From: an uncultured Nitrospirota bacterium
Lineage (GTDB): Bacteria; Nitrospirota; Nitrospiria; Nitrospirales; UBA8639
Length of the DNA stretch: 64,000 nt
NCBI GenBank assembly: GCA_942491685.1
Contig: CALOBY010000004.1
Coordinates: 425,965 to 489,964 of the forward strand
Direction: 5' to 3'
A program made the translations under genes and the position numbers. Below the pieces are notes generated by a model. That model had not been told where the DNA came from, ran no database searches, and saw only the letters and a list, made by a program, of their open reading frames with translations. Shown in pieces: positions 51,053 to 63,455 of the stretch (within the stretch, counting starts at the first letter, position 1; the number at the start of each line of letters is the position of its first letter).

Positions 51053-52330
51053 TTAACTGCCCTCAATTCTCACGCCGATGGTTCCGGCGTAGTTGTCGAA
51101 TTGGCTGTGGCCAACCAAGGCCTTAAAGTTCACGAAGGGTTGAATCCCATTAGGCAGGACCAATACGGTGCCCATACCTAAAGTGAAAAAATTTCTATCA
51201 GGTTTATCGTTGTTAAAGCTAAACTTAGTTGGGTTCGCTCGGTTGTCCTCGATAAATTGGACGTCAATAGATCGTTGATCATTCTCAAACTCATGAATAT
51301 AGTCTGCCGTGGCTTGCGGAACCCAGACACCATAGGACGTATTGATTGCCATGGTTCCCTGAAGGCCAATGGTGGTTTGGAGGGATTTGACAGTTTGGTC
51401 GTCAAACTCTAGGCCGATGCCTCCGCCGCCACTTTCTTTATAATCACCAATAGAATTACGGGAATAGTTCACTCCCACCCGTGGACCAACGGTAATATTT
51501 CCGATTATGTGGTCATAGCCTGTCAACGCTTGGATTTGAAATTCATTTCCATCTGAATCGCTACGGGCATTGCCCCCGAATGGAGTGCCGCCAAGTGTCA
51601 CGTATTGGACCTGTCTTTTTACATCGTAGTTATGCCTGGAATACCCTAGACTGACATCAACAAACATGGCTGGTATAGGCATGACGGAACCATAAGCCAG
51701 GAAGCCATAGGAATCGGTGTCGAAATTTCCCCCGCCGTCAAAGTCTCCATCGCGATTTGTATAATTGAAGGCGCCGCCGGCTAAGAACATGTTATTAAAT
51801 CGATAGTCTGCCCCGACCGTTGCACCCAACACCGTTGAATCAAACCCATCCCCAAATGTTGTTCTATCCCTATTCAACGCCTCGAAATTTCCAGAAACAA
51901 AGAGGCCTAAACCGCTCGGCAAATTAATAGTCGCTTGATTCCCAGTCGATTCCCCTTCCAGCCGGTCTAGTCTTCGGTTTTCTACCGTGGCTCCTAATGA
52001 TTGAGCGGATCCCGTTCCCCCGCCAGCAGAACCTCCAGGTCCAGATGGAATATCGTTGCAGAGGGCAGTCAGGTTAGGGCCCAAACCAGGAACGGCACCT
52101 CCACCGGTCAGATTTTGACATTGGAGATCAAGTTGATTAGCTATCGCTTGGTCCAGGGTAGTTGCGGCAAGGGTGGAATTCGGCAAACAAAAAGTGGCAG
52201 CTAACAGGGTGGTTCCTAAGAAACCATATGCCCCGGTAATTTTGATCAAGGGACGGCAAGAGGTTGAGAACCGAGAACCCTTTTCCCTTGAAGAAAAATC
52301 ATCTAGCGGGTTGTCATGCATCGTATCCAT
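51053..52330 (-). CDS. Autotransporter beta-domain outer-membrane protein with very short passenger
   Basis: GGAGG RBS before ATG 52330, long signal peptide, a passenger with two Cys, then a barrel (TVGADYRF, GPRVGVNY, WVPQATADYIHEF, C-terminal GTIGVRI). Confidence 0.82.
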   Translation of the reverse strand: MDTMHDNPLDDFSSREKGSRFSTSCRPLIKITGAYGFLGTTLLAATFCLPNSTLAATTLDQAIANQLDLQCQNLTGGGAVPGLGPNLTALCNDIPSGPGGSAGGGTGSAQSLGATVENRRLDRLEGESTGNQATINLPSGLGLFVSGNFEALNRDRTTFGDGFDSTVLGATVGADYRFNNMFLAGGAFNYTNRDGDFDGGGNFDTDSYGFLAYGSVMPIPAMFVDVSLGYSRHNYDVKRQVQYVTLGGTPFGGNARSDSDGNEFQIQALTGYDHIIGNITVGPRVGVNYSRNSIGDYKESGGGGIGLEFDDQTVKSLQTTIGLQGTMAINTSYGVWVPQATADYIHEFENDQRSIDVQFIEDNRANPTKFSFNNDKPDRNFFTLGMGTVLVLPNGIQPFVNFKALVGHSQFDNYAGTIGVRIEGS

Positions 52331-52514
52331 TTCACACCTCCCCAGAATACGGACCAAATAATAGTAGTAAAATTCCTTACGGTTGAAAAAGACACTGATT
52401 ATAAAGCCTGATAGGCCTGGTTTCAATATAAAAGAGACCACCAGTGTTGATCCGTTAAGTGCTGACTCAGTACACTGTCATGCATAAGTGATTGTAAAGA
52501 TTCACTCAATACCT

Positions 52515-54755
52515 ATGGCTCCCACATTTTCCCCAAAGAATATCTTCGTCGTTCTTTTCCTTGCCATGTTGAATGCTGCCTTACTGTCTTCATGTAGAAC
52601 GAATTCTGGCCAAGATTCTCTCACTGGAGGGGGAAATTCCGATGTAAGGTCTTCCGCAACTGTTGGGGGAGGGGATGATTTTCTGGCTGTGGATTGCCTA
52701 CTGCCAGGCCAAATGCGACGTCTTGGGACGCGTGTGACGTTTTTGACCGCCCGCCGCCCAGCACGAACGACAGCCGAAGACTGCGCCATACGTGGCGGCG
52801 AATACACTCTCCATGATCGGGCTGACTATCAGACTTCACTGAAGTTGTGGCTTGATGCGGCTCAAGAAGGCGATGCGAAAGCTCAATATTACGTAGGTAC
52901 CATTTATGAGAAAGGGCCGAAAGGCATACCGGATTACGCTTTGGCTGCAGTCTGGTATCAAAAAGCTGCCGAACAGGACCATCGACAGGCGGCGATGAAC
53001 TTGGGCCGCCTCTATGAAAAAGGGTTGGGCGTACCCCACAATGCCTCAACAGCCTTTCAATGGTATGGCCGGGCGTCAGGGTTAGGGGAATCAGGTTTAT
53101 CGATGCTGATGAATGTAGAAGCGAGTCAACGCATCCAGCATTTGGAAAAAGCTATGGGAGAGAAGGAAAAAGAGATACTTCGATTGCGAGCACATATTAA
53201 TGAGATAACCCAAGAGCTTAGTCAATTGCGGAATCAACTTCGCCAGCAATCATCAGAGGCCGAAATCGAGCATCAAAAGTTACATACGTTGGAAGAGGAA
53301 TATCAAAAGATTCAGGTTCAGGTACAGGCTGAGCGAGAACAACATGCACGAGATCAAGAGGAACTTCATCAACTCAAAAGTCTTCTGACGAAAAAAACCG
53401 GTTCGGCGGAAAGCATGCGTAATCGAATTCAGGTATTAGAAGTGTCTTTGGCGCAGTCTAACCAGGATGCTAGGCGGGAACAAATTCAAAAGGCCATGCA
53501 AGCGATACAGGTAAAACTCGATCGACAAAAAGTGATTGTGAACGAGCGGAATCAGGAAGTCGAGCGACTGCACCAGCATATTGCCTTATTGGAAAAAGAA
53601 GCGGATGAACGGAACCAGGAATTGAGGCAGACTCCTAGCGTTGATTTAGGATTTGAAGGACCGACGATAGAAATCGTGGATCCCCCGATGCCCCCGACTA
53701 GGGGTATCAATGTGGTCGGGGACGTGCCCATTATTCCAGCTGTGGTTGGCGTCCCACGTCACCTTGCCGGACGGGTCATTGCTCCCGCAGGCTTGCGTAC
53801 TTTCACCATAAACGGGCATGCCGTTCAAGTGGATGATCATGGTATTTTCGCGATGGATTTTCCTCCAATTTCTGAAGCCCATGGGACCCTACCGGTTCAA
53901 ATCATGGCAGTCGATATCCAAAATAAACATGCGGCCAAGAAAATAACCTTGGTGGCTGGTAAAACGGTGGTCGCGGCGCCGGAAATTTCCGACGAAGATA
54001 TGGAAGTTTTTGGGAATTACTATGCGTTGGTCATCGGCAACGATAAATATGAGCATTGGAATCCACTCAGAAATGCAATATCCGATGCTCAGGCAGTGGC
54101 TGAAGTCCTTGGAACCCGTTATGGATTCAAGGTGACCTTTCTGAAAAATGCTACGCGGAGAGATATATTGAAGGGGCTCAACAACTTTAGAAAAACACTT
54201 AAAGAAAATGACAACCTCCTAGTCTACTATGCCGGACATGGGCATTTGGAAAAAGATATCGATCGAGGTTATTGGATTCCTGTGGATGCGGAAATCGATG
54301 ATACCTCTCAATGGATTCTCACTCCCAGTATTACAGATCTTCTGGAGCTGATGTCTGCGAAGCACATACTTGTCGTCGCAGATTCCTGCTTTGCCGGGAA
54401 AATGACCCGGTCGAGTCTGGCGCAACTGCGCCCTGGTCTCTCGGAAGAGAAGCGAATGAAAATGCTCAAGACTGTGGCAAAAAAACGAGTGCGCACGGCG
54501 TTGACTTCTGGAGGGGAACATCCGGTCTTAGATGTTGGAGAAGGAGGACATTCGGTGTTTACAGGAGCCTTCATCACTGTCCTCGGTGAAAATCAAGCCA
54601 TCCTGGAGACCGAACGCCTGTTCCTTGCTATTCGCACCAGAGTGGTGAGTGCTGCGGGAGAATTTAAAATGGAACAAATTCCCACCTATTGGCCTATCCA
54701 ATTTGCTGGCCATGAGAGCCTCGGAGATTTCATCTTCATCCCACAACAAAGCTAG
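52515..54755 (+). CDS. Lipoprotein with Sel1-like repeats, coiled coil and C-terminal caspase-like (peptidase C14) domain
   Basis: Lipobox LSS-C; Sel1 repeats (AQYYVGTIYEKG, AAMNLGRLYEKGLG); YALVIGNDKY; catalytic YYAGHG and VADSCFAG. Confidence 0.88.
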   Translation: MAPTFSPKNIFVVLFLAMLNAALLSSCRTNSGQDSLTGGGNSDVRSSATVGGGDDFLAVDCLLPGQMRRLGTRVTFLTARRPARTTAEDCAIRGGEYTLHDRADYQTSLKLWLDAAQEGDAKAQYYVGTIYEKGPKGIPDYALAAVWYQKAAEQDHRQAAMNLGRLYEKGLGVPHNASTAFQWYGRASGLGESGLSMLMNVEASQRIQHLEKAMGEKEKEILRLRAHINEITQELSQLRNQLRQQSSEAEIEHQKLHTLEEEYQKIQVQVQAEREQHARDQEELHQLKSLLTKKTGSAESMRNRIQVLEVSLAQSNQDARREQIQKAMQAIQVKLDRQKVIVNERNQEVERLHQHIALLEKEADERNQELRQTPSVDLGFEGPTIEIVDPPMPPTRGINVVGDVPIIPAVVGVPRHLAGRVIAPAGLRTFTINGHAVQVDDHGIFAMDFPPISEAHGTLPVQIMAVDIQNKHAAKKITLVAGKTVVAAPEISDEDMEVFGNYYALVIGNDKYEHWNPLRNAISDAQAVAEVLGTRYGFKVTFLKNATRRDILKGLNNFRKTLKENDNLLVYYAGHGHLEKDIDRGYWIPVDAEIDDTSQWILTPSITDLLELMSAKHILVVADSCFAGKMTRSSLAQLRPGLSEEKRMKMLKTVAKKRVRTALTSGGEHPVLDVGEGGHSVFTGAFITVLGENQAILETERLFLAIRTRVVSAAGEFKMEQIPTYWPIQFAGHESLGDFIFIPQQS

Positions 54756-55370
54756 TGTCCAAGATGAGACTTCGGACTTGAGGACCTGGTTTTTTTATCG
54801 AAATCACGGGTATCTCTTTGTTCTAAACTCCCCGATCAGGGGAGTTTCCATAATAAATTAACCCAGCCTTGAACCATCAGATGGTCTTTTTCGGCACATT
54901 GGGTAGGCTCAGGAAGCATGACAGGTTTTCTGCGTACCTGGGCTCAAAAGCCAGAAAAGAGATTCCCGGTAAAAATTTTCTATTGAACGGTTGTGGCCTC
55001 TAACGAGGCCAACCGTCCGATTGTCTGTTCAGACATCCTCACGATTATCGATCTGACCCAATCTATTCCATGTGGGTGAAAATTCCCACATTTAGGTCAA
55101 ACGCAACTGAAATAGTATATCTGAGTGAGAATAGAAGGTGGCCTTTCGAAGAAATATTGGTCAAAAATGTACATCGCTTTCTTGCCCCAATGGGTCATCG
55201 GTTTTCAAAGTTGGCTGGGTAGACATCATTCATTCCTGGTTTCCCGGCAGCATGTCTTTTCCAAATCACTTTGAAGTGTACAACTTTCCGTGAAGCTGCC
55301 ACTGGACAAACAAACGCTGCAAGAGCACTCACTTGAATGGTAAGAAACCTCGAATGAATCAATCAGGAAA

Positions 55371-55574
55371 TTACTGAAGGGGATAGTTGAGAAAGGTCCG
55401 GCGGGATGAAGTTTTCCACTTTTGCAGGAAGTCAAGGACTTCAAAGAGACGAGTTGAGCCTTGGGCCGCACAATCAATCGCCCCGTTTTTATGTACCCTC
55501 CAGATGCCATCTCCTTCGCGAAGAAGATACATACCTTCTTCACATGATCGACTAATCCCCATCGCCTGGTTCAT
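55371..55574 (-). CDS. 67-aa hypothetical protein
   Basis: AAAGGAGAG RBS; start overlaps the end of the upstream 81-aa gene. It could be degenerate. Confidence 0.5.
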   Translation of the reverse strand: MNQAMGISRSCEEGMYLLREGDGIWRVHKNGAIDCAAQGSTRLFEVLDFLQKWKTSSRRTFLNYPLQ

Positions 55575-55797
55575 CTTGTCTCTCTCCTTTACGAAGTCTG
55601 TGTTGAGACATCGCTAAAACTTTGGTGCAGTCGGCGCAACAGACCTCTTGTTCTTGGACGGAAACCAATCGAATGTAATGCTGACACTGGACACAATACA
55701 GATATCCTTGTCCGTAAAAGCGATAAGGGTAAGTGGGCCATAAACCCTCCCAATTCACCGTTTCGATCGGGATCATGGAAGCTGTAAGTGAAGCCAT
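55552..55797 (-). CDS. 81-aa CxxC...CxxC zinc-finger microprotein
   Basis: AGGAGG RBS; YCVQCQH...VCCADCTKVLA. Confidence 0.7.
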   Translation of the reverse strand: MASLTASMIPIETVNWEGLWPTYPYRFYGQGYLYCVQCQHYIRLVSVQEQEVCCADCTKVLAMSQHRLRKGERQDEPGDGD

Positions 55798-55830
55798 GGT
55801 AGAAATCCTCCTGCGAATATGAGGGTCAAT

Positions 55831-55911
55831 TCATTGCCGCCATAACCAAAACATGGAACCCAGTCCTAAAAGGCTTAATCCAGTGATGCTAATGATCAAC
55901 ATGATCTCCAT
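55831..55911 (-). CDS. 26-aa single-TM micropeptide (not in ORF track)
   Basis: MEIMLIISITGLSLLGLGSMFWLWRQ*; GAAAGG RBS; lies between the sigma54 site and the Zn-finger gene. Confidence 0.5.
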   Translation of the reverse strand: MEIMLIISITGLSLLGLGSMFWLWRQ

Positions 55912-55966
55912 GGTGTTGCCTTTCTGTTGAGGCAGTCGTTGGGGATCTCCTCATGGTTCAAGTTAG

Positions 55967-55982
55967 AGCAACCTTGATGCCA
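55967..55982 (-). promoter_or_regulatory. Sigma54 (-24/-12) promoter
   Basis: Minus strand TGGCATCAAGGTTGCT fits GG-N10-GC. Confidence 0.7.
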
Positions 55983-56330
55983 AAAATAATCGCGACTACC
56001 TGTGGTGACAGAGTCTATATCCGATTATTTTCAAAGGAAAATACTAAATAATGGAAGGATAGTGTTGGGGGCTGTGAGGGAATGAAAAGGAGGGTGTACA
56101 TGGTTAGATAAGCCATGTACCTTTTTCGTCAAACGTTGTGATGCGGGTCTTTTTCTCCTAAGGCCCGAAAATATTGAGATCATCATCATGGCGTTTGAGA
56201 TCTTGTTCAACGATCGCCGGGTCGATCCTTTCAGCGCACGCAACTGTCCAGGCCCTGCCCCTTCAAAGAAAGCTTCCTTCGCCCAACGGTATCTCCGGCT
56301 TCGATCTTCCGTGTTCTTTGACGGGGCGTA

Positions 56331-57944
56331 TTACCGTTGTGAAGGCAGTCGTCGCGTTGGTGATTTCAATCCAGTGGGTGGTTGAAGTCTTTCTCTTGTC
56401 GCATTTGGCGTCGAAATGGCTGAAGAAGTCGTAATGCCATTCGGGCTCAATTGAATAAACTGATTGCCTGATCGAAGGATCAACCGTTCCTGACCACTAG
56501 TGGCATCGAACAGGATCTCATTGGTCATTCCTGATACTGAGCGATTCTGAAAGAGTGCGTGAAACTGATTGTCTGGTAATGAAGTAGGTGGCAGGTCCTT
56601 TCCGTTCCACATGTTTCCTAAGATCACAGGACGATTGGGGTCGCCATGCTCGAAGGCCACTACCACTTCGTCGTTAATCTCTGGGATCCACATGGCGCCG
56701 GTCCCGTTCCCGGTCGCCAGCTGCGCCACTCGGACCCAGCCCGCGTCCCCTTCCGTCTGGTTGCTGAAGGCCGGGTTTCGCCAGGGGAACCGTACGCGCA
56801 CCCGACCAAATTCATCCACGTGCTTCGACTCTCCTTGTGGCCCAACCACGATTCCAGGCAGGGCGCCGGCAATCTTGGGCCGTGGCGTCCCGGGAGCCGG
56901 GCGAAAAATAATGTTAGCAGGTAGGCAGGTAAATGAATTGTGGTAGCCTTTTGGCGTACTGTGATGTTCCACACCAGTAATCACATATTCCTGATTGAAA
57001 TCCTTGCGTGGGTGTCTGGTCATTGAGAACCGGTAGCCAGCCCGCATGTGCATGTAGGTGGATGTTCCTCCACAAGATTGCCCTTCCGTGACTCGTGCTG
57101 CTAACCGTGTGGTGGCAAACTGCTGTGACTCTTGGGGTGTGTCCACTGCGGCGGGGAACACCCCTTCCACTAAATCACGAAAGAATGGAGATTGAGCCGT
57201 GGCCGTCAAATTGACATTCGGAGTTTTCCAATGGACATCTCCAGCTTGAATCCGGCCGGAATGGAGAGCCAACCCTCGCGAAAAGGACGTGATGGATGGA
57301 CCCTTGGGAGACGCAAACATCAATTGGCCTGGAGATAAAATGGGGAAGGCGGTGTTGGAATCACCTAAGACCACCTTCACATCGGGGCCGGAAGGTTCAA
57401 AATGATAGTGAATCCCTTCGTTCTCTAAAAGCCGGGAAAAGTAGGTGAAATCACTTTCCTGATATTGAATAGAAATTTCTCTAGATGAACCTGAGCCTCC
57501 GAGTCGTATTTCAAAATCCGAAATCCCGGCGTCATTCATCACGATAGTCATAATTTGTACCGCATTCATGTCGGCAAAGGTGCGACTGGTCATGCGATAG
57601 GACAGCCGTTTCAGTGGAGGCACTAAATGTAGGCGATACTGGCCTTGTCGACCTGTTGCACCAGACTGTTCGATGGTCTCGATCATGCCTTCTACCGTCC
57701 GACCTTTGGCCACTGTGAGCTTCAAGACTTGGCCTACAATATTGGCAAAGTTTAAGGCTGGATGTGGAACAGATACTTCAAGATCAAACCTAAACGGTTG
57801 TGAAATATGCTCTGTGCCGGAAAATTGCACAACGCGAGCTTGAGATAGAGCGGCCAAGTCAGAATTTGTGGCGGCCAGCACATTTAAGGGCAGGCCAAGG
57901 ACGAGGGCAGTCAGTCTCAAGATCCAGAATATTTTCGTTTTCAT
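56331..57944 (-). CDS. vgrG: VgrG-like spike hub protein (gp27-like plus gp5 OB-fold) with N-terminal signal peptide and truncated C-terminus
   Basis: GTEHISQPFRFDL, QYQESDFTYFSRLLENEGIHYHF, DEFGRVRVRFPW, WVRVAQ, PEINDEVVVAFEHGDPNRPVILG and NEILFD..SGQERL. N-terminus MKTKIFWILRLTALVLGLPLNVLA|A. Confidence 0.9.
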   Translation of the reverse strand: MKTKIFWILRLTALVLGLPLNVLAATNSDLAALSQARVVQFSGTEHISQPFRFDLEVSVPHPALNFANIVGQVLKLTVAKGRTVEGMIETIEQSGATGRQGQYRLHLVPPLKRLSYRMTSRTFADMNAVQIMTIVMNDAGISDFEIRLGGSGSSREISIQYQESDFTYFSRLLENEGIHYHFEPSGPDVKVVLGDSNTAFPILSPGQLMFASPKGPSITSFSRGLALHSGRIQAGDVHWKTPNVNLTATAQSPFFRDLVEGVFPAAVDTPQESQQFATTRLAARVTEGQSCGGTSTYMHMRAGYRFSMTRHPRKDFNQEYVITGVEHHSTPKGYHNSFTCLPANIIFRPAPGTPRPKIAGALPGIVVGPQGESKHVDEFGRVRVRFPWRNPAFSNQTEGDAGWVRVAQLATGNGTGAMWIPEINDEVVVAFEHGDPNRPVILGNMWNGKDLPPTSLPDNQFHALFQNRSVSGMTNEILFDATSGQERLILRSGNQFIQLSPNGITTSSAISTPNATRERLQPPTGLKSPTRRLPSQR

Positions 57945-58010
57945 CACAAGATTCCTTCCTAGCAAATAAAGAGAGCCTTACAGAAAATTCTAAAGCCACA
58001 ACATGGCAAC

Positions 58011-58973
58011 TTACTTATCCCAGAGGTCACACACGAACCTGGTGCTGTCGATATAAATGCCACGCTTCCCGCGAAAGGCTTTGCCGACTTTTCCGGAAGG
58101 GCAGAAAAAGTTACCTGAGGGGGAGCTACTAAAATTTCCAATTACTTTGCATCTGCCCCCGGTACAACTTACGCTTTCCGAATAAATTGTCGCTTTTTGG
58201 CTTTGATTCCATTGACTACAGAATAAAAGAATTCCATTGACGAACTGGCCGGAAAAACCCTTGACTCCCTGAACGACCTTGCCATTTTCACAACGACCAA
58301 CTTGAGCAATTCCCCCACTACCCCCAACCGGTCCTCTGGTGAATTCATTTCCCAAAGCCCCGGTTTGAGAGTTTACTTGTTGACAAATGATTCCCAGAGC
58401 ATCCAACCACATTCCGCTTTTGTAAATTCCCCCAACCATGACGGAGCCACTGCCACAATCGAGATTATACGAATAGTTACCTCCTCCCCCTCCAAAAAGG
58501 GGGGTGGAGTATTCCGTCGAGGCGGTCCTTTGGGTGGAGGAAAGCGTTTTTAGGCGTTGAATGGTGAAAAGCGAAAGAGTGCCTCTGGAGCGAATACCAC
58601 TATAGGTGCCGATCGCTTCCAACCGCTTTCCATCAGGAATCAACAAGGCAAGGTGGTAGGTGTCAGGTTGGTCTCCCTCAGCCGAAATCGCCAAAGGAGC
58701 GGTGAGCGATTCTTCATGGGTCGCCGACTGCGCTTCCAAGAGCAACGAATCCACCGCCTGTCCTTCGCTCGGGGTGACCCGCAGCCATTTGTCAGCCGCA
58801 CCCACGGCATAGGTACCGGCGTCGAGCACAATGTTGCTGCCTTCGGCATTCAGAAAATGCACCGGTTGATCCAAAGTGATGCTGGTGTCGGCTAGGGCTG
58901 TGGGAATGTCAGCCAGAAACCACGCCAGGAACGCGCTGGCCAGAGACAAGTAAAAGGGAAGTGTCTGTCGCAT
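58011..58973 (-). CDS. Secreted protein: shared N-terminal domain plus Cys-containing beta-prism (jacalin/VMO-I-like) domain
   Basis: Signal peptide, LDQPVHFL...GTYSGIRSRG, then three repeats of G.GG...C..G.V..G...G..(LD/VN/ID)...C. Confidence 0.8.
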   Translation of the reverse strand: MRQTLPFYLSLASAFLAWFLADIPTALADTSITLDQPVHFLNAEGSNIVLDAGTYAVGAADKWLRVTPSEGQAVDSLLLEAQSATHEESLTAPLAISAEGDQPDTYHLALLIPDGKRLEAIGTYSGIRSRGTLSLFTIQRLKTLSSTQRTASTEYSTPLFGGGGGNYSYNLDCGSGSVMVGGIYKSGMWLDALGIICQQVNSQTGALGNEFTRGPVGGSGGIAQVGRCENGKVVQGVKGFSGQFVNGILLFCSQWNQSQKATIYSESVSCTGGRCKVIGNFSSSPSGNFFCPSGKVGKAFRGKRGIYIDSTRFVCDLWDK

Positions 58974-59022
58974 GACATCTCCTTTGTAAAAAGAATGGAT
59001 GAGATTATTTTTGAATTGTTGG

Positions 59023-59946
59023 TTATTTCATGTTCTCAATAATCTTTCTCTGCGCATCCGAGTTTTTCTTCATGATCTGAGACATGGCTTGCTGTGCTTG
59101 AGAAAATTTGGACATGGCCGTTTGAAGTTGGAAATTCAAGTCCTTCGAGGCATTTTCTAAGGTCTGTAATTCCTGTTTCAACCGCTGCGTCAACTGTTGC
59201 CATTGGGTTTTTCGTTGTTGGTTGCGTTCCTGTGCCAACTTTTTTTGTGTGTCTTGTAAGTGTTGACGAATTTTTTGTTTTTTGGTGTTCCCGTCTTGGA
59301 TCTTTGCTCGATAGAACTGTAAATCTTTTTGAGTGGCTAAATATGATTGCCGTAAAACTTCAACCATGAGGGCATTGGCATTGAGCGAATGAGGAAGCTG
59401 ATTCTTCGATTGAGTTGGCTGTTTGCCTTGTCCCACCAGTTTATTCCATTCCTTTTGTAAGGAGGATTTCGGCGCCTTCTTTGTCAGTGATTTAGCGAAT
59501 GATTTCACCTGTTTCCTAAAGGGCGGCTTGAAGGTTTTTCTTAGATTGTGAAGGCTCATCCCACGCGTTTGAATGCCGCTATACGAGCCCATCGCCTCTA
59601 GTCCGTTATGGTCTGGAATCGCCAAAGCCAGATAGACTCCTTCGTCGGGAATCGGAATGGCCATTCCTATTGGCAACTCGACTTCGTCAGGAAACGGGGT
59701 AGGCTGCGCTTGTAGAGAAATAGATGTTTGGCCATCCTGAGCCTGGAGCCGTAACTCGTCTCCCTGTCTTTCTAGTTCGTACGTTCCGGGTGGAACCACG
59801 ACATCATTGCCTTCTGGAGTCAGGAAGTGAACCGCCTGGTCCAGCATGATCGCCATCGAAGATTCTGATGCCAGCGCCGGTAATGTTCCAAGAAGAAATG
59901 TTACGAATAAGAGTCCAAGTAATTTGATCGAGTATTTCTTCGTCAT
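59023..59946 (-). CDS. Secreted protein: shared N-terminal domain plus coiled-coil C-terminus
   Basis: GAGG RBS at ATG 59946, signal peptide, LDQAVHFL...GSYSGIQTRG, Q/K-rich coiled coil ending ...MSQIMKKNSDAQRKIIENMK. Confidence 0.8.
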   Translation of the reverse strand: MTKKYSIKLLGLLFVTFLLGTLPALASESSMAIMLDQAVHFLTPEGNDVVVPPGTYELERQGDELRLQAQDGQTSISLQAQPTPFPDEVELPIGMAIPIPDEGVYLALAIPDHNGLEAMGSYSGIQTRGMSLHNLRKTFKPPFRKQVKSFAKSLTKKAPKSSLQKEWNKLVGQGKQPTQSKNQLPHSLNANALMVEVLRQSYLATQKDLQFYRAKIQDGNTKKQKIRQHLQDTQKKLAQERNQQRKTQWQQLTQRLKQELQTLENASKDLNFQLQTAMSKFSQAQQAMSQIMKKNSDAQRKIIENMK

Positions 59947-59969
59947 GTTCTTGCCTCGCGATTTGCTGG

Positions 59970-61301
59970 TTAATATCCTATGGGGGTTGGTATTTGTCCG
60001 CCTGCGCAGGATCCGCCTATGACAGGACCTACCGGCACGAACGGGGGTGCAAAGGAGGGTACGGGCCCAGAACCCATGACGTTCATCAACTGGCATCCAC
60101 TGAGACAGGTTGCATGTCGTCCACCGATATCCGTGGCGAACCCCTGGACGGCAATCTTGGCTTCTTTGTCGCTCGATGGGACGCCTAATCGAGATAAAAC
60201 CTTTTTAGCTAAAAGGGGTGGCGTCATCGCTTTCGTTCCAGCGGAGGGCATCGACGAAAGAGGAAATGGAACGTTTGGCATGGGAGGAGCCTGTGCTCCA
60301 GGAAAGGCTGTAAATGCCGGATACATGGGAAGGCCAGGGATGATAACGTTCTTCGCCCAAAGGTTCCACGTTTCTTTGAAAGCCTGGTCCCAACCATCAG
60401 CTACGGATTTAGACGCGCCTGCCGCCTTCAACGCTTTTGATATTTTGCCCTGAAACGAGTATCGGCTTTTCAGGACACCGGGTGTTCCGATGGCCGATAC
60501 CGCCATGACCTTACAATAGTTTCTATCGATATAGGCCTGACTGAGCCAGGTTGCTGCCTCCGCTCGGGCTGCAGCAATGGCCGTTTGACTCCACAGAGTC
60601 CATTTCCCGGATCCGCCGGTCACGGTTTGTCTGGCTTTCTGAATTCCACTCTTCACATTTGATACGACCTGGCTGGTTTTTTTCTCAACGGCTTTCTTGA
60701 CTTCAAGCGCGGCTTTTCTGGAATTCTGAAGACCTTGTTTCGCGGATGATGCCGCCCTTTGGGTATGTTGTTGTGCTTGTTTTGTCGCTTTTTGTGCGGA
60801 ACTTTTGGCTTGTGAAGCGGCCTTCTTTGCCGTGGACTTGGCTTTCTTATGGGCTTGTTTAGCCTTTTTCTTCACGTTGTTCACGGCATTGTTAAAAAAT
60901 CCCCTCTGTCTAATGCCACTAAAGGTTCCTGTTGATTCCAAACTTTCACCGTTTGGCAGTAACAAAATGATGTGGTGAAGATCCTGACTATCGTCATCGG
61001 TACCTGAGACTGACAAGGCCAACGGCTCTGGTAGTTCTAGCTCATGTGTGCCTTTGTTGGCCTCAATGAGGACGGCGTCATGACGTTCACCGGACATCAG
61101 GCGAATCCATTCTTCAGCCGGCTCAATGCCATACGTACCGGCCTTGACTACTAGATCACTCCCATCGGGTGCCAAAAAATGTACAGGGATGTCCAGTTTA
61201 ATCGTGGTAAGAGGATCCCGTAATGAGGCTGCTGATTTTCCCGTGGTGCTGAACAAAGCGAACGTTACCAAAATAGTAGAAAGAAATTTGAATTTTTTCA
61301 T
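59970..61301 (-). CDS. Secreted protein: shared N-terminal domain, basic helical linker and Pro-rich unknown C-terminal domain
   Basis: GAGG RBS at ATG 61301, signal peptide, LDIPVHFL...GTFSGIRQRG, K/A/Q linker, C-terminal PGLPMYPAF...GPVPSFAPPFVPVGPVIGG. Confidence 0.8.
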   Translation of the reverse strand: MKKFKFLSTILVTFALFSTTGKSAASLRDPLTTIKLDIPVHFLAPDGSDLVVKAGTYGIEPAEEWIRLMSGERHDAVLIEANKGTHELELPEPLALSVSGTDDDSQDLHHIILLLPNGESLESTGTFSGIRQRGFFNNAVNNVKKKAKQAHKKAKSTAKKAASQAKSSAQKATKQAQQHTQRAASSAKQGLQNSRKAALEVKKAVEKKTSQVVSNVKSGIQKARQTVTGGSGKWTLWSQTAIAAARAEAATWLSQAYIDRNYCKVMAVSAIGTPGVLKSRYSFQGKISKALKAAGASKSVADGWDQAFKETWNLWAKNVIIPGLPMYPAFTAFPGAQAPPMPNVPFPLSSMPSAGTKAMTPPLLAKKVLSRLGVPSSDKEAKIAVQGFATDIGGRHATCLSGCQLMNVMGSGPVPSFAPPFVPVGPVIGGSCAGGQIPTPIGY

Positions 61302-63365
61302 GGTTGTGACCTCTTGGCTCATACGGACATAAGGATAAGGTGTGTTTCAGCGCACCGCAGCTTCTGCGAGCTGCACGACACTTTGGTTGTAACGCTCCAA
61401 GGCTTTCCGAGTATCCTCCGTATGGGTGCTGGCTAATATGACGATTTGTTGCTTAGAGGGTAAATACCGCAAAAGAGCCGACAATGGTCCCGCATGCCGT
61501 TGAATGGCCGTATACGTTCGGTTGTTTTTCAAGGCATCTTTGGCCTCATCGATGACCTTGCCGTACGCATAATGGGCTCCGGCTTTCACGCTGCCGACAA
61601 TGATATTGTTGATAGCCAATTTCCAAATGACGTCGGGTGTGATTTTTGCCAGGCCGGACACAATCCCCCCGGCTTCAGGGACGAGACCAGCCACACTCTG
61701 GACGACCGTGCCCACGGTTTGTTCCCCAAAATCCAACACTTCGACAGCAGAGCGGATGAGGAAACTCCCCCCACCTGGCAGTTCACTATCCAGATACTTT
61801 TTCCCCACGACACGAAGGATTTCCATGCCGATATCGATATAGAGGGATTCCGTCCAAGGAGTATTAGGATCCAGCGCGGTTCTGACGGCATTGAGGGCCT
61901 GCCCCCGCTGAGAGGGGTTATTCAACGTTTTAGTGAGGTGTTCAATTTGACTGGCGGCCGCATAGAGATCGCGTGGGTTCAATAACTGGTCTGCCAGGAC
62001 CGCGTTCTTAATGTCAAGGATATCCCCCAACCCTGGAACCACATCACCGAGCAAGGCTTTTGTATCATCTTGCGTGAATCCTCGACTGATAATAGGGCTC
62101 TTGGAAAAGAAACGATCGTCGGAAAAATACTGTTGGGGATTAATGCCTCTTGACTGAATTTTTGCTTGGGCAATTTCTTGAGGCGTCAGGGAAAGGACAG
62201 CTGCCATTAGATCGCCAAGCTGCTTGCTTAAACTGCCAAACAAAATGGGGGCCACTTGATTGTCAAAGATACGTTTCCCTTGGGTGATGGTGGTCTGCTG
62301 GATCTGACCAGATTTTCTCTGAAAGGCCTGGAGATGTGGACGGACAAACTGCATCAGACATCGCCCCCCGGGGCCCTTTTGTGCGATTTTTTCAATGGAC
62401 CGAAAAGCCATGGCGATGACCTGCGGGCCTTGTGGTGCTGAACGAGACGGGTTCCGAATGAACTGCAGTTGTTCCGACATGATGTCGCTAAAACTCTGCT
62501 CCCATTGCTGCATGATGTCCTGGAAGAGTTGGTTCGCAAATTCTGGAGGATTGCTCGTGAATTGTTGAACCATCTGTGGAATGTTGGCCGAGGGTTTTCC
62601 CGATGACTGGGCCAGGCAGGCAAATAAGGGTTCCAAACTGAGTTTTCTAACGGCTTCTAGCGTTTGGATTTCACTTTGGAGTGTGGCGACCAGGGGATTA
62701 TTTTTGATTTGATTCATCCCTGCCTGGGCACTGCTTTGGACATTTCCTGCCACCTGCTTGGCGGTATTCTCCACTTGACGCTTAGCGTGAAGGGCCGCGT
62801 TTCTGGCTGTTTGAAATCCAGCTTTTGCTGTTGAAACTGCCTGCTGCGTTCCTTTTCGTACTTGTTTCTGTGCGTTTCGTGCAGCTTTTTGTGCTTGAGA
62901 GGCCGCCTTCTGTGTTTCTTGCTGAGCGTGTTTCGTTGCCTTTTGTGCGGTGCTTTGGGCCTGAGAAACAGTTTTCCTGGCTGTAGATCGGGCTTTCTTA
63001 TAGGCTTGATTCGTCTGTTTTTTAACGTTATTGATGGCCTGGTCAAAGAACCCCCGAGGTCGGATCCCACTGTAAGTCCCCGTTGATTCTAAGCTCTTAC
63101 CGTTTGGGAGTAAGAGGATGAGGTGATGGCGGTCTCGGCTATCATCTTGAGTATCTGCCACTGACAAGACGAGTGCATCTGGGAGCTCTAACTCATGTTT
63201 GCCGGCCTTAGTTTCAATGAGGAAGGATTCATGACGAATCCCTGGTACCAACCGAAGCCAATCTTCTGCAGCTTCAACCGTATAGGTTCCTGTTGGGATG
63301 ACCTGAGAACTGCCATCTGCCCCAATAAAATGGATCGGTTTGTCAATAGTGATTGACGTCAGTGG
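60600..63365 (-). repeat. Paralogous duplicated segment (shared domain plus K/A/Q linker) in genes 59970-61301 and 61347-63455
   Basis: The two N-terminal domains are 66/106 identical by hand alignment. The linkers align (FF.NA.NNVKK...QA.KKA.STA.K..SQA.S.AQKATK.AQQ.TQ.AAS), and DNA similarity is visible between ~60780-61070 and ~62930-63230. Confidence 0.85.
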
Positions 63366-63455
63366 ATCGGTGATTGTTGCCAAACATACGCCCGATAACA
63401 TCAAGGCTGAGACCAGAGAACACAAGAATGTATAAATCCACTGAGATCGCTTCAT
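61347..63455 (-). CDS. Secreted protein: shared N-terminal domain, basic helical linker and large helical C-terminal domain
   Basis: AGAGGAG RBS, signal peptide, IDKPIHFI...GTYSGIRPRG, K/A/Q linker, then about 470 aa of mostly helical sequence. Confidence 0.82.
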   Translation of the reverse strand: MKRSQWIYTFLCSLVSALMLSGVCLATITDPLTSITIDKPIHFIGADGSSQVIPTGTYTVEAAEDWLRLVPGIRHESFLIETKAGKHELELPDALVLSVADTQDDSRDRHHLILLLPNGKSLESTGTYSGIRPRGFFDQAINNVKKQTNQAYKKARSTARKTVSQAQSTAQKATKHAQQETQKAASQAQKAARNAQKQVRKGTQQAVSTAKAGFQTARNAALHAKRQVENTAKQVAGNVQSSAQAGMNQIKNNPLVATLQSEIQTLEAVRKLSLEPLFACLAQSSGKPSANIPQMVQQFTSNPPEFANQLFQDIMQQWEQSFSDIMSEQLQFIRNPSRSAPQGPQVIAMAFRSIEKIAQKGPGGRCLMQFVRPHLQAFQRKSGQIQQTTITQGKRIFDNQVAPILFGSLSKQLGDLMAAVLSLTPQEIAQAKIQSRGINPQQYFSDDRFFSKSPIISRGFTQDDTKALLGDVVPGLGDILDIKNAVLADQLLNPRDLYAAASQIEHLTKTLNNPSQRGQALNAVRTALDPNTPWTESLYIDIGMEILRVVGKKYLDSELPGGGSFLIRSAVEVLDFGEQTVGTVVQSVAGLVPEAGGIVSGLAKITPDVIWKLAINNIIVGSVKAGAHYAYGKVIDEAKDALKNNRTYTAIQRHAGPLSALLRYLPSKQQIVILASTHTEDTRKALERYNQSVVQLAEAAVR

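Follow-up and report, generated by a model that had tools for sequence, protein, structure and literature searches.

We analysed a stretch of 64,000 nucleotides from an uncultured Nitrospirota bacterium (GCA_942491685.1, contig CALOBY010000004.1; hereafter the window) and focused on a gene for a 746-residue lipoprotein that ends in a caspase-like peptidase domain of family C14. We find that the constant genomic partner of this gene is a divergently transcribed gene for an autotransporter barrel, and not the nearby array of exported proteins with a shared leader (hereafter leader proteins) which, according to the initial annotation of this stretch, the protease might mature. From its sequence, the lipoprotein is predicted to be a cysteine endopeptidase of family C14 (clan CD) that is exported and anchored by a lipid, and it very probably forms a pair with the barrel. 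All positions refer to the window, and residue numbers to the 746-residue protein starting at the ATG at 52515.

The partnership with the barrel was followed in two sets of loci. Among 16 loci surrounding orthologues of the caspase lipoprotein in an order-wide genome sample, the orthologue of the barrel gene is the divergent adjacent gene in 15, including all 10 loci from genomes that are free of leader genes. The second set holds 45 full-length loci obtained by scanning one genome per species, and covers Nitrospirales and Nitrospiraceae (including Ca. Nitrospira defluvii, FP929003.1) together with one Tectomicrobia and two Stellaceae metagenome-assembled genomes (MAGs). Here, the barrel gene is divergent and adjacent at 32 of the 45 loci and lies otherwise within 10 kb at nine, giving 41 loci in total; it was undetected at four, among them L060, which has almost no upstream flank. 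In the Tectomicrobia locus, the barrel and caspase genes stand in a 4-bp tandem. The autotransporter domain PF03797 occurs once each in the source genome (G000) and in G132 and G151, and always in the barrel partner gene, whereas of eight orthologue-free genomes tested seven have none and the eighth (G067) encodes one different autotransporter of 838 residues. The barrel partner is conserved across Nitrospirota, Tectomicrobia, and some Alphaproteobacteria, and it is found in the cultured Ca. Nitrospira defluvii.

The barrel carries a passenger of about 60 residues with two conserved Cys and a Gly-rich linker. We note that the N-terminal module of the caspase lipoprotein has exactly two invariant Cys, and a disulfide-linked or docking contact between the two proteins is possible. 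The flank on the barrel side shows conserved housekeeping synteny and the flank 3' of the caspase gene is variable; no conserved gene was found 3' of the caspase gene in leader-free genomes, and no kinase, regulator, or other transducer was found beside the pair in the window or in the Tectomicrobia, Stellaceae, and Burkholderiaceae loci examined. A pattern scan of the 184-bp intergenic region, which picked out a promoter-like sequence facing the autotransporter gene (Table 1), gave no comparable match toward the caspase gene. As a further observation, the full-length relatives in the two Stellaceae MAGs (L069, L070) and the Tectomicrobia MAG (L071) have 34-42% identity and are still adjoined by an autotransporter gene, and the Stellaceae proteins begin with a plain signal peptide in place of a lipobox.

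The caspase lipoprotein has a composite architecture that is shared by its relatives. The open reading frame (ORF) runs from 52488 or 52515 to 54755 on the plus strand, and the ATG at 52515 is the start in the database protein and in the orthologues. More than 839 full-length homologues were found, and conservation was read from an alignment of 22 orthologues with 46-85% identity. Read by eye, the signal peptide MAPTFSPKNIFVVLFLAMLNAALLSS has a 15-residue hydrophobic core ahead of the lipobox L-S-S-C27 (Cys27 at nucleotides 52593-52595). The lipobox Cys is invariant among the Nitrospirales orthologues and lacking from the Stellaceae relatives, and none of the orthologues has an Asp at position +2 after this Cys. 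It is followed by a two-Cys module with the invariant residues D60, C61, L62, L63, P64, G65, Q66, R68, G71, R80, R81, P82, D89, C90, R93, G94, G95, and E96 in the 22 orthologues. Pfam and PDB searches with this module gave no match; it is present in 852 representative clusters among 1.84 billion proteins, and in each of the 10 long matches checked it precedes two Sel1 repeats, five of these proteins ending in C14. In the protein studied here the Sel1 repeats match PF08238 in two stretches (52 bits against a cut-off of 30.7) and Sel1 proteins of the PDB at E=6e-70. Next comes a coiled-coil stalk, the length of which differs from orthologue to orthologue, and an immunoglobulin (Ig)-like beta-sandwich whose match to Glucodextran_B is weak here and passes the Pfam cut-off in homologue P0202; fibronectin type III and Ig modules are among its fold-search matches. 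The AlphaFold2 (AF2) model of the whole protein has a mean predicted local distance difference test score (pLDDT) of 66, with a confident Sel1 region (residues 105-188) and a caspase fold from about residue 500; values below 50 are seen in the two-Cys module (26-103), a loop at 390-403, and the active-site loops 577-603 and 629-676. The lipobox, two-Cys module, Sel1 repeats, coiled coil, PPTRGI motif, beta-rich domain, and His/Cys dyad listed in the initial annotation are all present where it placed them, and it was likewise right about a convergent vgrG gene some 1.6 kb away (the caspase stop at 54755 and the vgrG stop at 56331 are separated by 1,575 bp).

The C-terminal domain matches Peptidase_C14 (PF00656) over residues 503-725 with 97.8 bits against a cut-off of 21.4, and its catalytic dyad, H575 (YAGHG) and C625 (DSCF), is intact and invariant in the 22 orthologues and in all four C14 paralogues of the genome. 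Fold searches returned the fungal metacaspases 7qp0 and 4f6o, GSU0716 (3bij), caspase-4, and MALT1 with E-values of 3e-6 to 1e-3, at a template modelling score to the target of about 0.5 and from an AF2 model of only moderate confidence. The closest solved relatives are MALT1, GSU0716, and Yca1; MALT1 ranks first in a profile search of PDB sequences, with about 24-30% identity across a portion of the domain. Arg-specific paracaspases and metacaspases supply the nearest solved structures. In the HMMER alignment, D524 falls on the Asp of the MALT1 'PLVDV' motif, which we take to be D365 of its Arg-binding S1 pocket, and D623-S-C625 reproduces the D-x-C arrangement seen in MALT1 (D462/C464) and in metacaspases. 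Residues D524, H575, D623, C625, and D673 are invariant in the four C14 paralogues of the genome, and the three Asp are also invariant in the 22 orthologues. Given these acidic residues at predicted S1 positions, and since orthocaspases cleave after basic residues (PMC6426788) and MALT1 cleaves after Arg (PMC11165066), it is reasonable to infer that the C14 domain is specific for Arg or Lys.

A candidate site for self-cleavage is the TRG within the PPTRGI motif (residues 393-398). The initial annotation had located this motif at a domain junction; the motif is confirmed, but TRG follows the first strand of the Ig-like domain and thus lies inside a loop (residues 390-403) that contains PPMPPTRGINVVG and has a pLDDT below 50. 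R396 is invariant in the 22-orthologue alignment, and the pattern x-[TS]-R-G is retained in 42 of 43 full-length orthologues from three phyla, L053 being the exception and Ca. Nitrospira defluvii, Tectomicrobia, and Stellaceae being among the carriers. Because TRG is missing from the paralogue type with WD40-SH3-Ig-caspase architecture, the motif is specific to the Sel1/coiled-coil/Ig caspase family. A precedent for autoprocessing before an Ig-caspase unit is MALT1, whose own cut falls at R149, between the death domain and the first of the Ig domains (PMC4126661). From the sequence, cleavage of the present protein at TR↓G (the arrow marks the proposed cut) is possible, although we would put it on the doubtful side.

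In addition to its constant partner, the caspase gene has a recurrent neighbour. Where an orthologue and a leader gene occur in the same genome, they lie close together (Table 1), the G081 assembly being too fragmented to judge; in the four genomes with a single leader gene, this gene is 1.2-10.9 kb from the orthologue. Across the species set, a leader gene is found within 10 kb of the orthologue at nine of the 45 loci and directly 3' of it at three (G132/L029; L042, in which the leader ORF starts 4 bp past the caspase stop; and L048). VgrG lies within 10 kb at two loci only, and the link between leader and caspase is therefore independent of VgrG. All four C14 genes of the source genome are situated no more than 4 kb from a leader gene (probability by chance, about 3e-8). 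In 11 well-assembled genomes with 66 C14 matches, the counts of which are not phylogenetically independent, 28 of the 66 have a leader match no more than 10 kb away, where 1.8 would be expected, and for 12 of them the distance is 5 kb or less (1.1 expected). C14 genes near leaders are often immediately upstream in tandem on the same strand, and among the C14 matches examined the domain is never fused to a leader in one ORF. The link that the initial annotation proposed between this protease and the SGIxxR↓G proteins is thus a recurrent one (at least nine species loci, and all four C14 genes in this genome).

Table 1. Features of the caspase locus in the window, the further C14 genes of the source genome, and leader genes near orthologues
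Feature	Position	Strand	Basis or remark
Short-passenger autotransporter barrel, divergent, 184-bp intergenic region	51053..52330	-	Pfam Autotransporter, 1.6e-51
Near-consensus sigma-70-like promoter TTGAAA-17-TATAAT facing the autotransporter gene	52398..52426	-	Pattern scan, 11/12 matches; a consensus match only
Gene for 746-aa Sel1/coiled-coil/Ig-like/C14 lipoprotein (stop included)	52515..54755	+	ORF, translation, Pfam Sel1 and Peptidase_C14
Signal peptide and lipobox, L-S-S-C27	52515..52595	+	Sequence reading; Cys27 kept in 22/22 orthologues
Two-Cys N-terminal module, residues 55-104, C61 and C90	52677..52826	+	Invariant columns
Two Sel1 repeats, residues ~105-190	52827..53084	+	Pfam; PDB; AF2 pLDDT 80-95
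Coiled-coil stalk, residues 201-372, ~170 residues	53115..53630	+	Long helices in AF2 model
Ig-like beta-sandwich, residues 384-481	53664..53957	+	AF2 strands; weak Glucodextran_B match
T395-R396-G397, candidate self-cleavage site in loop 390-403	53697..53705	+	R396 invariant; pLDDT <50
C14 caspase-like domain, residues 499-746	54009..54752	+	Pfam 1e-27; H575 at 54237-54239, C625 at 54387-54389
Signal-peptide-bearing VgrG-like gene, convergent with caspase gene	56331..57965	-	Pfam Phage_GPD and Phage_base_V
Array of four exported proteins sharing a ~105-aa leader ending SGIxxR↓G, candidate substrates	58011..63455	-	Translations, alignment
Bare secreted C14 caspase	C5:311232-312068		OMP-like (outer-membrane protein-like) gene before, leader gene 114 bp after
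Lipoprotein C14 caspase	C4:516605-517906		Followed by two genes with two tandem leaders each
Metacaspase-like DSCHSG protein with DUF4384	C4:528579-530960		2.3 kb from double-leader gene
Leader gene in G132	0.4 kb from orthologue	same as orthologue	
Leader genes in G048	0.8 kb, either side of orthologue		
Leader gene in G090	1.2 kb from orthologue		Sole leader gene of genome
Leader gene in G036	2.2 kb from orthologue		Sole leader gene of genome
Leader gene in G188	3.1 kb from orthologue		Sole leader gene of genome
Leader gene in G000 (window)	3.9 kb from caspase gene		
Leader gene in G179	10.9 kb from orthologue		Sole leader gene of genome
Leader gene in G151	18 kb from orthologue		

The leader proteins themselves offer a well-defined candidate cut site, in that the leader ends in the motif G[ST][YF]SGIxxR↓G. 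The Arg occupies the same column in 35 of 37 distinct leader domains, and the residue behind it is G in 27, A in five, D in two, S in one, and M in one, so that all but one have G, A, S, or D. In the AF2 model of the leader (pLDDT 89.9), the last strand closes at '...ESTGT' and the tail FSGIRQ-R-G follows just past the fold with falling confidence, the Arg standing seven residues after the last strand. As modelled, the tail is placed as one would expect of a linker that a trans-acting protease cuts. Self-cleavage of the leader in the manner of SEA or GPS domains was also considered and is argued against by the residues after the Arg, which are not nucleophiles. A comparison of the leader fold with the PDB gave no match better than E=0.04.

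From the architecture, conservation, partner gene, and genomic linkage observed here, we infer the following arrangement. We are highly confident that the protease is one half of a conserved two-gene envelope module of which the divergent barrel is the other half. Our preferred reading of its function, which we hold tentatively and somewhat short of an even chance, is that of a tethered, Arg-specific envelope protease whose core function is tied to the barrel and for which leader proteins are optional substrates where they are present. The lipid, the two-Cys module, and the Sel1 repeats would tether the protein to the outer membrane, probably at the barrel or close to it, and the stalk would present the Ig-caspase unit within the periplasm. 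The enzyme would cut after Arg, as we propose because of the acidic S1 pocket, and the invariant T-R↓G loop before the Ig-like domain would be the likeliest site of self-cleavage or activation, for which R149 of MALT1 serves as the precedent. In lineages that acquired leader genes, this enzyme and other exported C14 paralogues would remove the leader in trans at its terminal Arg (G[ST][YF]SGIxxR↓G), and MaOC1, which cleaves a protein encoded by a neighbouring gene, provides a precedent (PMC7935541). Removal of the leader by a C14 enzyme is a possible candidate activity that we regard with some doubt. In its general form, the proposal would make exported C14 peptidases the trans-acting releasing enzymes of Sec-dependent polymorphic exoproteins; in the periplasm or at the outer membrane, they would sever the hitherto undescribed beta leader of about 105 residues at the Arg that terminates it. 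We likewise consider this conceivable but on balance doubtful.

Several observations weigh against this reading or parts of it. Outer-membrane sorting of the lipoprotein is predicted by the E. coli rules alone; the region of the two-Cys module (residues 26-103) has a pLDDT of 26-41 and hence no usable model; and the R/K-rich, low-confidence p20/p10 linker (residues 629-676) is the canonical place of C14 self-cleavage and an equally conventional candidate site. In a presence/absence sample of 201 genomes of the order, in which the leader profile matches 34 genomes and a full-length orthologue is found in about 27, nine genomes have both, 18 of the 27 orthologue-bearing genomes have no leader, and 25 leader-bearing genomes have no orthologue; in the species set, 36 of the 45 loci have no leader gene within 10 kb, that of Ca. 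Nitrospira defluvii being one of them. C14 genes as such are widespread (143/201 genomes). Moreover, S8 subtilases are also enriched near leaders (8/35 within 10 kb), which suggests that leader islands are rich in exported hydrolases generally and weakens the specificity of the C14 association. Three of these eight are fusions of leader and S8 in one ORF, i.e. cargo; the source genome has 0/4 S8 genes near leaders, and three of the 11 leader-bearing genomes tested have no S8 gene.

At the level of whole genomes, the presence of the orthologue and that of the leader barely correlate, in disagreement with the co-occurrence that the initial annotation had put forward for examination: Fisher's test gives an odds ratio of 3.0 (p=0.024) across the order and of 0.5 (not significant) within the genus. 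With the association this weak, we set genome-level co-occurrence aside as support and relied on co-localisation instead. The presence or absence of C14 genes in general is uninformative, given that they occur in 143 of the 201 genomes, including 34/34 leader-bearing ones. Divergent leaders hidden in the 18 orthologue-only genomes were sought with a broader, 24-sequence profile, which found none in 17 and a match of E=0.08 in one. The poor co-variation, together with the existence of both leader-free and orthologue-free genomes, indicates that the enzyme is not an obligate leader maturase and that leaders do not depend on it, and leader removal cannot be the core job of the module because 18 of the 27 genomes and 36 of the 45 loci are leader-free. 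This bears directly on the proposal of the initial annotation that the main job of the protease, after self-activation at TR↓G, is to mature the array proteins of an exported VgrG-like system. The distances from the caspase gene are indeed short, 1.6 kb to vgrG and 3.3 kb to the array, G132 carries an additional leader gene directly 3' of the caspase gene on the same strand, and the acidic S1 pocket would suit the Arg conserved in the leaders. However, orthologue and leader do not co-vary, 18 orthologue genomes being leader-free and the leader-richest genomes (24-28 copies) having no orthologue, VgrG is near the orthologue at just two of the 45 species loci, the gene is convergent with the array and outside its operon, and the partner that is conserved is the barrel. 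We therefore abandon the notion of a dedicated maturase of the array and regard this role as quite unlikely to be the main one.

Other explanations can be offered for the pair and for its surroundings. The barrel and the caspase could constitute a module for envelope sensing or signalling, in which periplasmic proteolysis would report surface or envelope events and the location beside islands of the secretion type would reflect regulation instead of the maturation of substrates, and the maintenance of the pairing across three phyla as well as the position of another C14 paralogue next to an apparent extracytoplasmic function (ECF) sigma/anti-sigma pair would fit such a role. We nevertheless consider it unlikely, since the pair has no linked regulator and no kinase or transducer nearby in the window and the other loci examined, and since the genes 3' of the caspase gene are not conserved. 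If, on the other hand, the leader adjacency had no functional meaning, variable islands would have been inserted repeatedly beside the pair or been inherited there. Such a history agrees with the contrast between the conserved synteny on the barrel side and the variable caspase 3' side, and the shared ancestry of related genomes, which makes the counts non-independent, also speaks for it; yet the linkage recurs around orthologues of 44-52% identity in unrelated flanks and at three other, unrelated C14 architectures of the same genome, and we judge a purely incidental adjacency improbable. Least probable to us, and indeed very unlikely, is that the caspase lipoprotein acts as an effector or surface protease in its own right, breaking down foreign or environmental proteins for instance, with leader islands being merely islands of exported hydrolases devoid of any enzyme-substrate relation. 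The enrichment of S8 subtilases near leaders, at times fused as cargo, and the finding that a caspase domain at the C-terminus can serve as the toxin domain of polymorphic toxin systems (PMC3482391) lend this idea some support. Against it, C14 domains are never fused to a leader in the data examined and are encoded in trans, in many cases by the same-strand gene directly upstream, the lipid anchor and long stalk favour a cell-bound enzyme, and the strict pairing with the barrel persists in island-free genomes.

The tethered protease that we favour shares features with several known systems. Orthocaspases, such as MaOC1 from Microcystis aeruginosa, likewise have a p20-type C14 domain with an intact His/Cys dyad; those characterised so far are cytoplasmic, whereas the present protein is set apart by its lipobox, two-Cys module, coiled-coil stalk, Ig-like domain, and constant barrel neighbour. 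MALT1 similarly has an Ig-like domain abutting its caspase domain and Asp at the positions matching D524 and D623, but unlike the present protein it is a cytosolic scaffold of eukaryotes that carries a death domain and has neither an export signal nor a membrane partner. Many MALT1 substrates have Gly at P1'. The combination of lipid anchor, protease, and autotransporter barrel is known from SphB1 of Bordetella and NalP of Neisseria, lipoprotein autotransporter proteases of the subtilisin-type serine class which process other secreted proteins. The likeness extends to the maturation of exported proteins in the envelope, here a candidate role; the difference is that SphB1 and NalP contain all parts in one chain, whereas in the present case the protease, of the cysteine class, and the barrel, which has hardly any passenger, come from two genes. 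PorU, the C-terminal signal peptidase of the type IX secretion system of Bacteroidota, belongs to family C25 of clan CD and removes a shared C-terminal sorting domain from many cargos. It resembles the present proposal in that one clan CD peptidase would serve many cargos outside the cytoplasm, but here the proposed removal is N-terminal and no type IX secretion system is involved.

Caspase-like releasing peptidases of polymorphic toxins, for which proteolytic release has been proposed (PMC3482391), are also of clan CD and accompany secreted proteins in which a common N-terminal module is joined to variable C-termini. An association of this kind is seen here, both in the 28 of 66 C14 matches near leaders and in the nine loci of this family. 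The releasing peptidase differs in being part of the toxin polypeptide, where it immediately precedes the toxin domain, whereas the C14 domain described here forms the C-terminus of a protein of its own, which is membrane-anchored and would work in trans. Homologues of caspases abound in bacteria, with Nitrospirae among the richest phyla, and Sel1-bearing prokaryotic C14 proteins were recorded in the same survey (PMC3501461). What is new relative to known C14/Sel1 proteins is the pairing with a barrel, the extracytoplasmic setting, and the candidate substrate class; our literature searches found no paper joining autotransporters with metacaspases or orthocaspases. For almost no bacterial caspase homologue has a substrate or role been established, and those that have been characterised are cytoplasmic. 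The present gene offers two handles on an exported caspase, namely an outer-membrane partner and candidate substrates with a predicted SGIxxR↓G cut site. If leader removal by C14 enzymes is borne out, it would explain the maturation of variable exported proteins in these nitrite oxidisers, extend the idea of releasing peptidases from cis to trans, assign to bacterial caspase homologues a defined class of substrates outside the cytoplasm, and add a route of protein maturation that operates alongside or without exported VgrG-like spike genes.

Finally, we note some further arrangements of leader and protease genes. In G132, the 85%-identical relative, an extra gene for a 363-residue leader protein lies directly 3' of the caspase gene (locus L013, 7445-8536, minus strand) and is not present in the window; its C-terminal domain contains HELAHVWQGQH, a metallopeptidase-like HExxH motif. 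A decayed leader gene was sought in the spacer between the caspase gene and vgrG (54756-56330), and discarded, as tblastn with the G132 leader protein gave E-values above 0.6; the only part of the spacer conserved with G132 is a small-ORF region at 55359-55985 (80% identity). Elsewhere in the source genome, C5:310416-313018 holds a same-strand trio encoding a 263-residue OMP-like protein (ending ...GLVF), a bare secreted C14 protein of 278 residues, and a leader protein of 278 residues, and the caspase-leader pair of this trio recurs in G132 (C1:2026243-2027553). At C4:511448-517906, a 433-residue lipoprotein C14 caspase with a weak PA-IL-like N-terminal domain is followed on the same strand by two double-leader proteins of about 620 residues, in which each leader ends in SGIxxR and the leader pair is succeeded by a Lys-rich region and a Gly-rich C-terminal domain; this type of lipoprotein caspase lies 400-600 bp from leader genes in G132, G126, G164, and G172. 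Fusions of leader and Peptidase_S8 in one ORF occur in G086 (C4:1182197-1186627) and G128 (C1:2943419-2945203) and place secreted subtilases among the leader cargo. At C4:527103-530960, the C14/DUF4384 gene is divergent to what, judged by sequence, appears to be an ECF sigma/anti-sigma pair.

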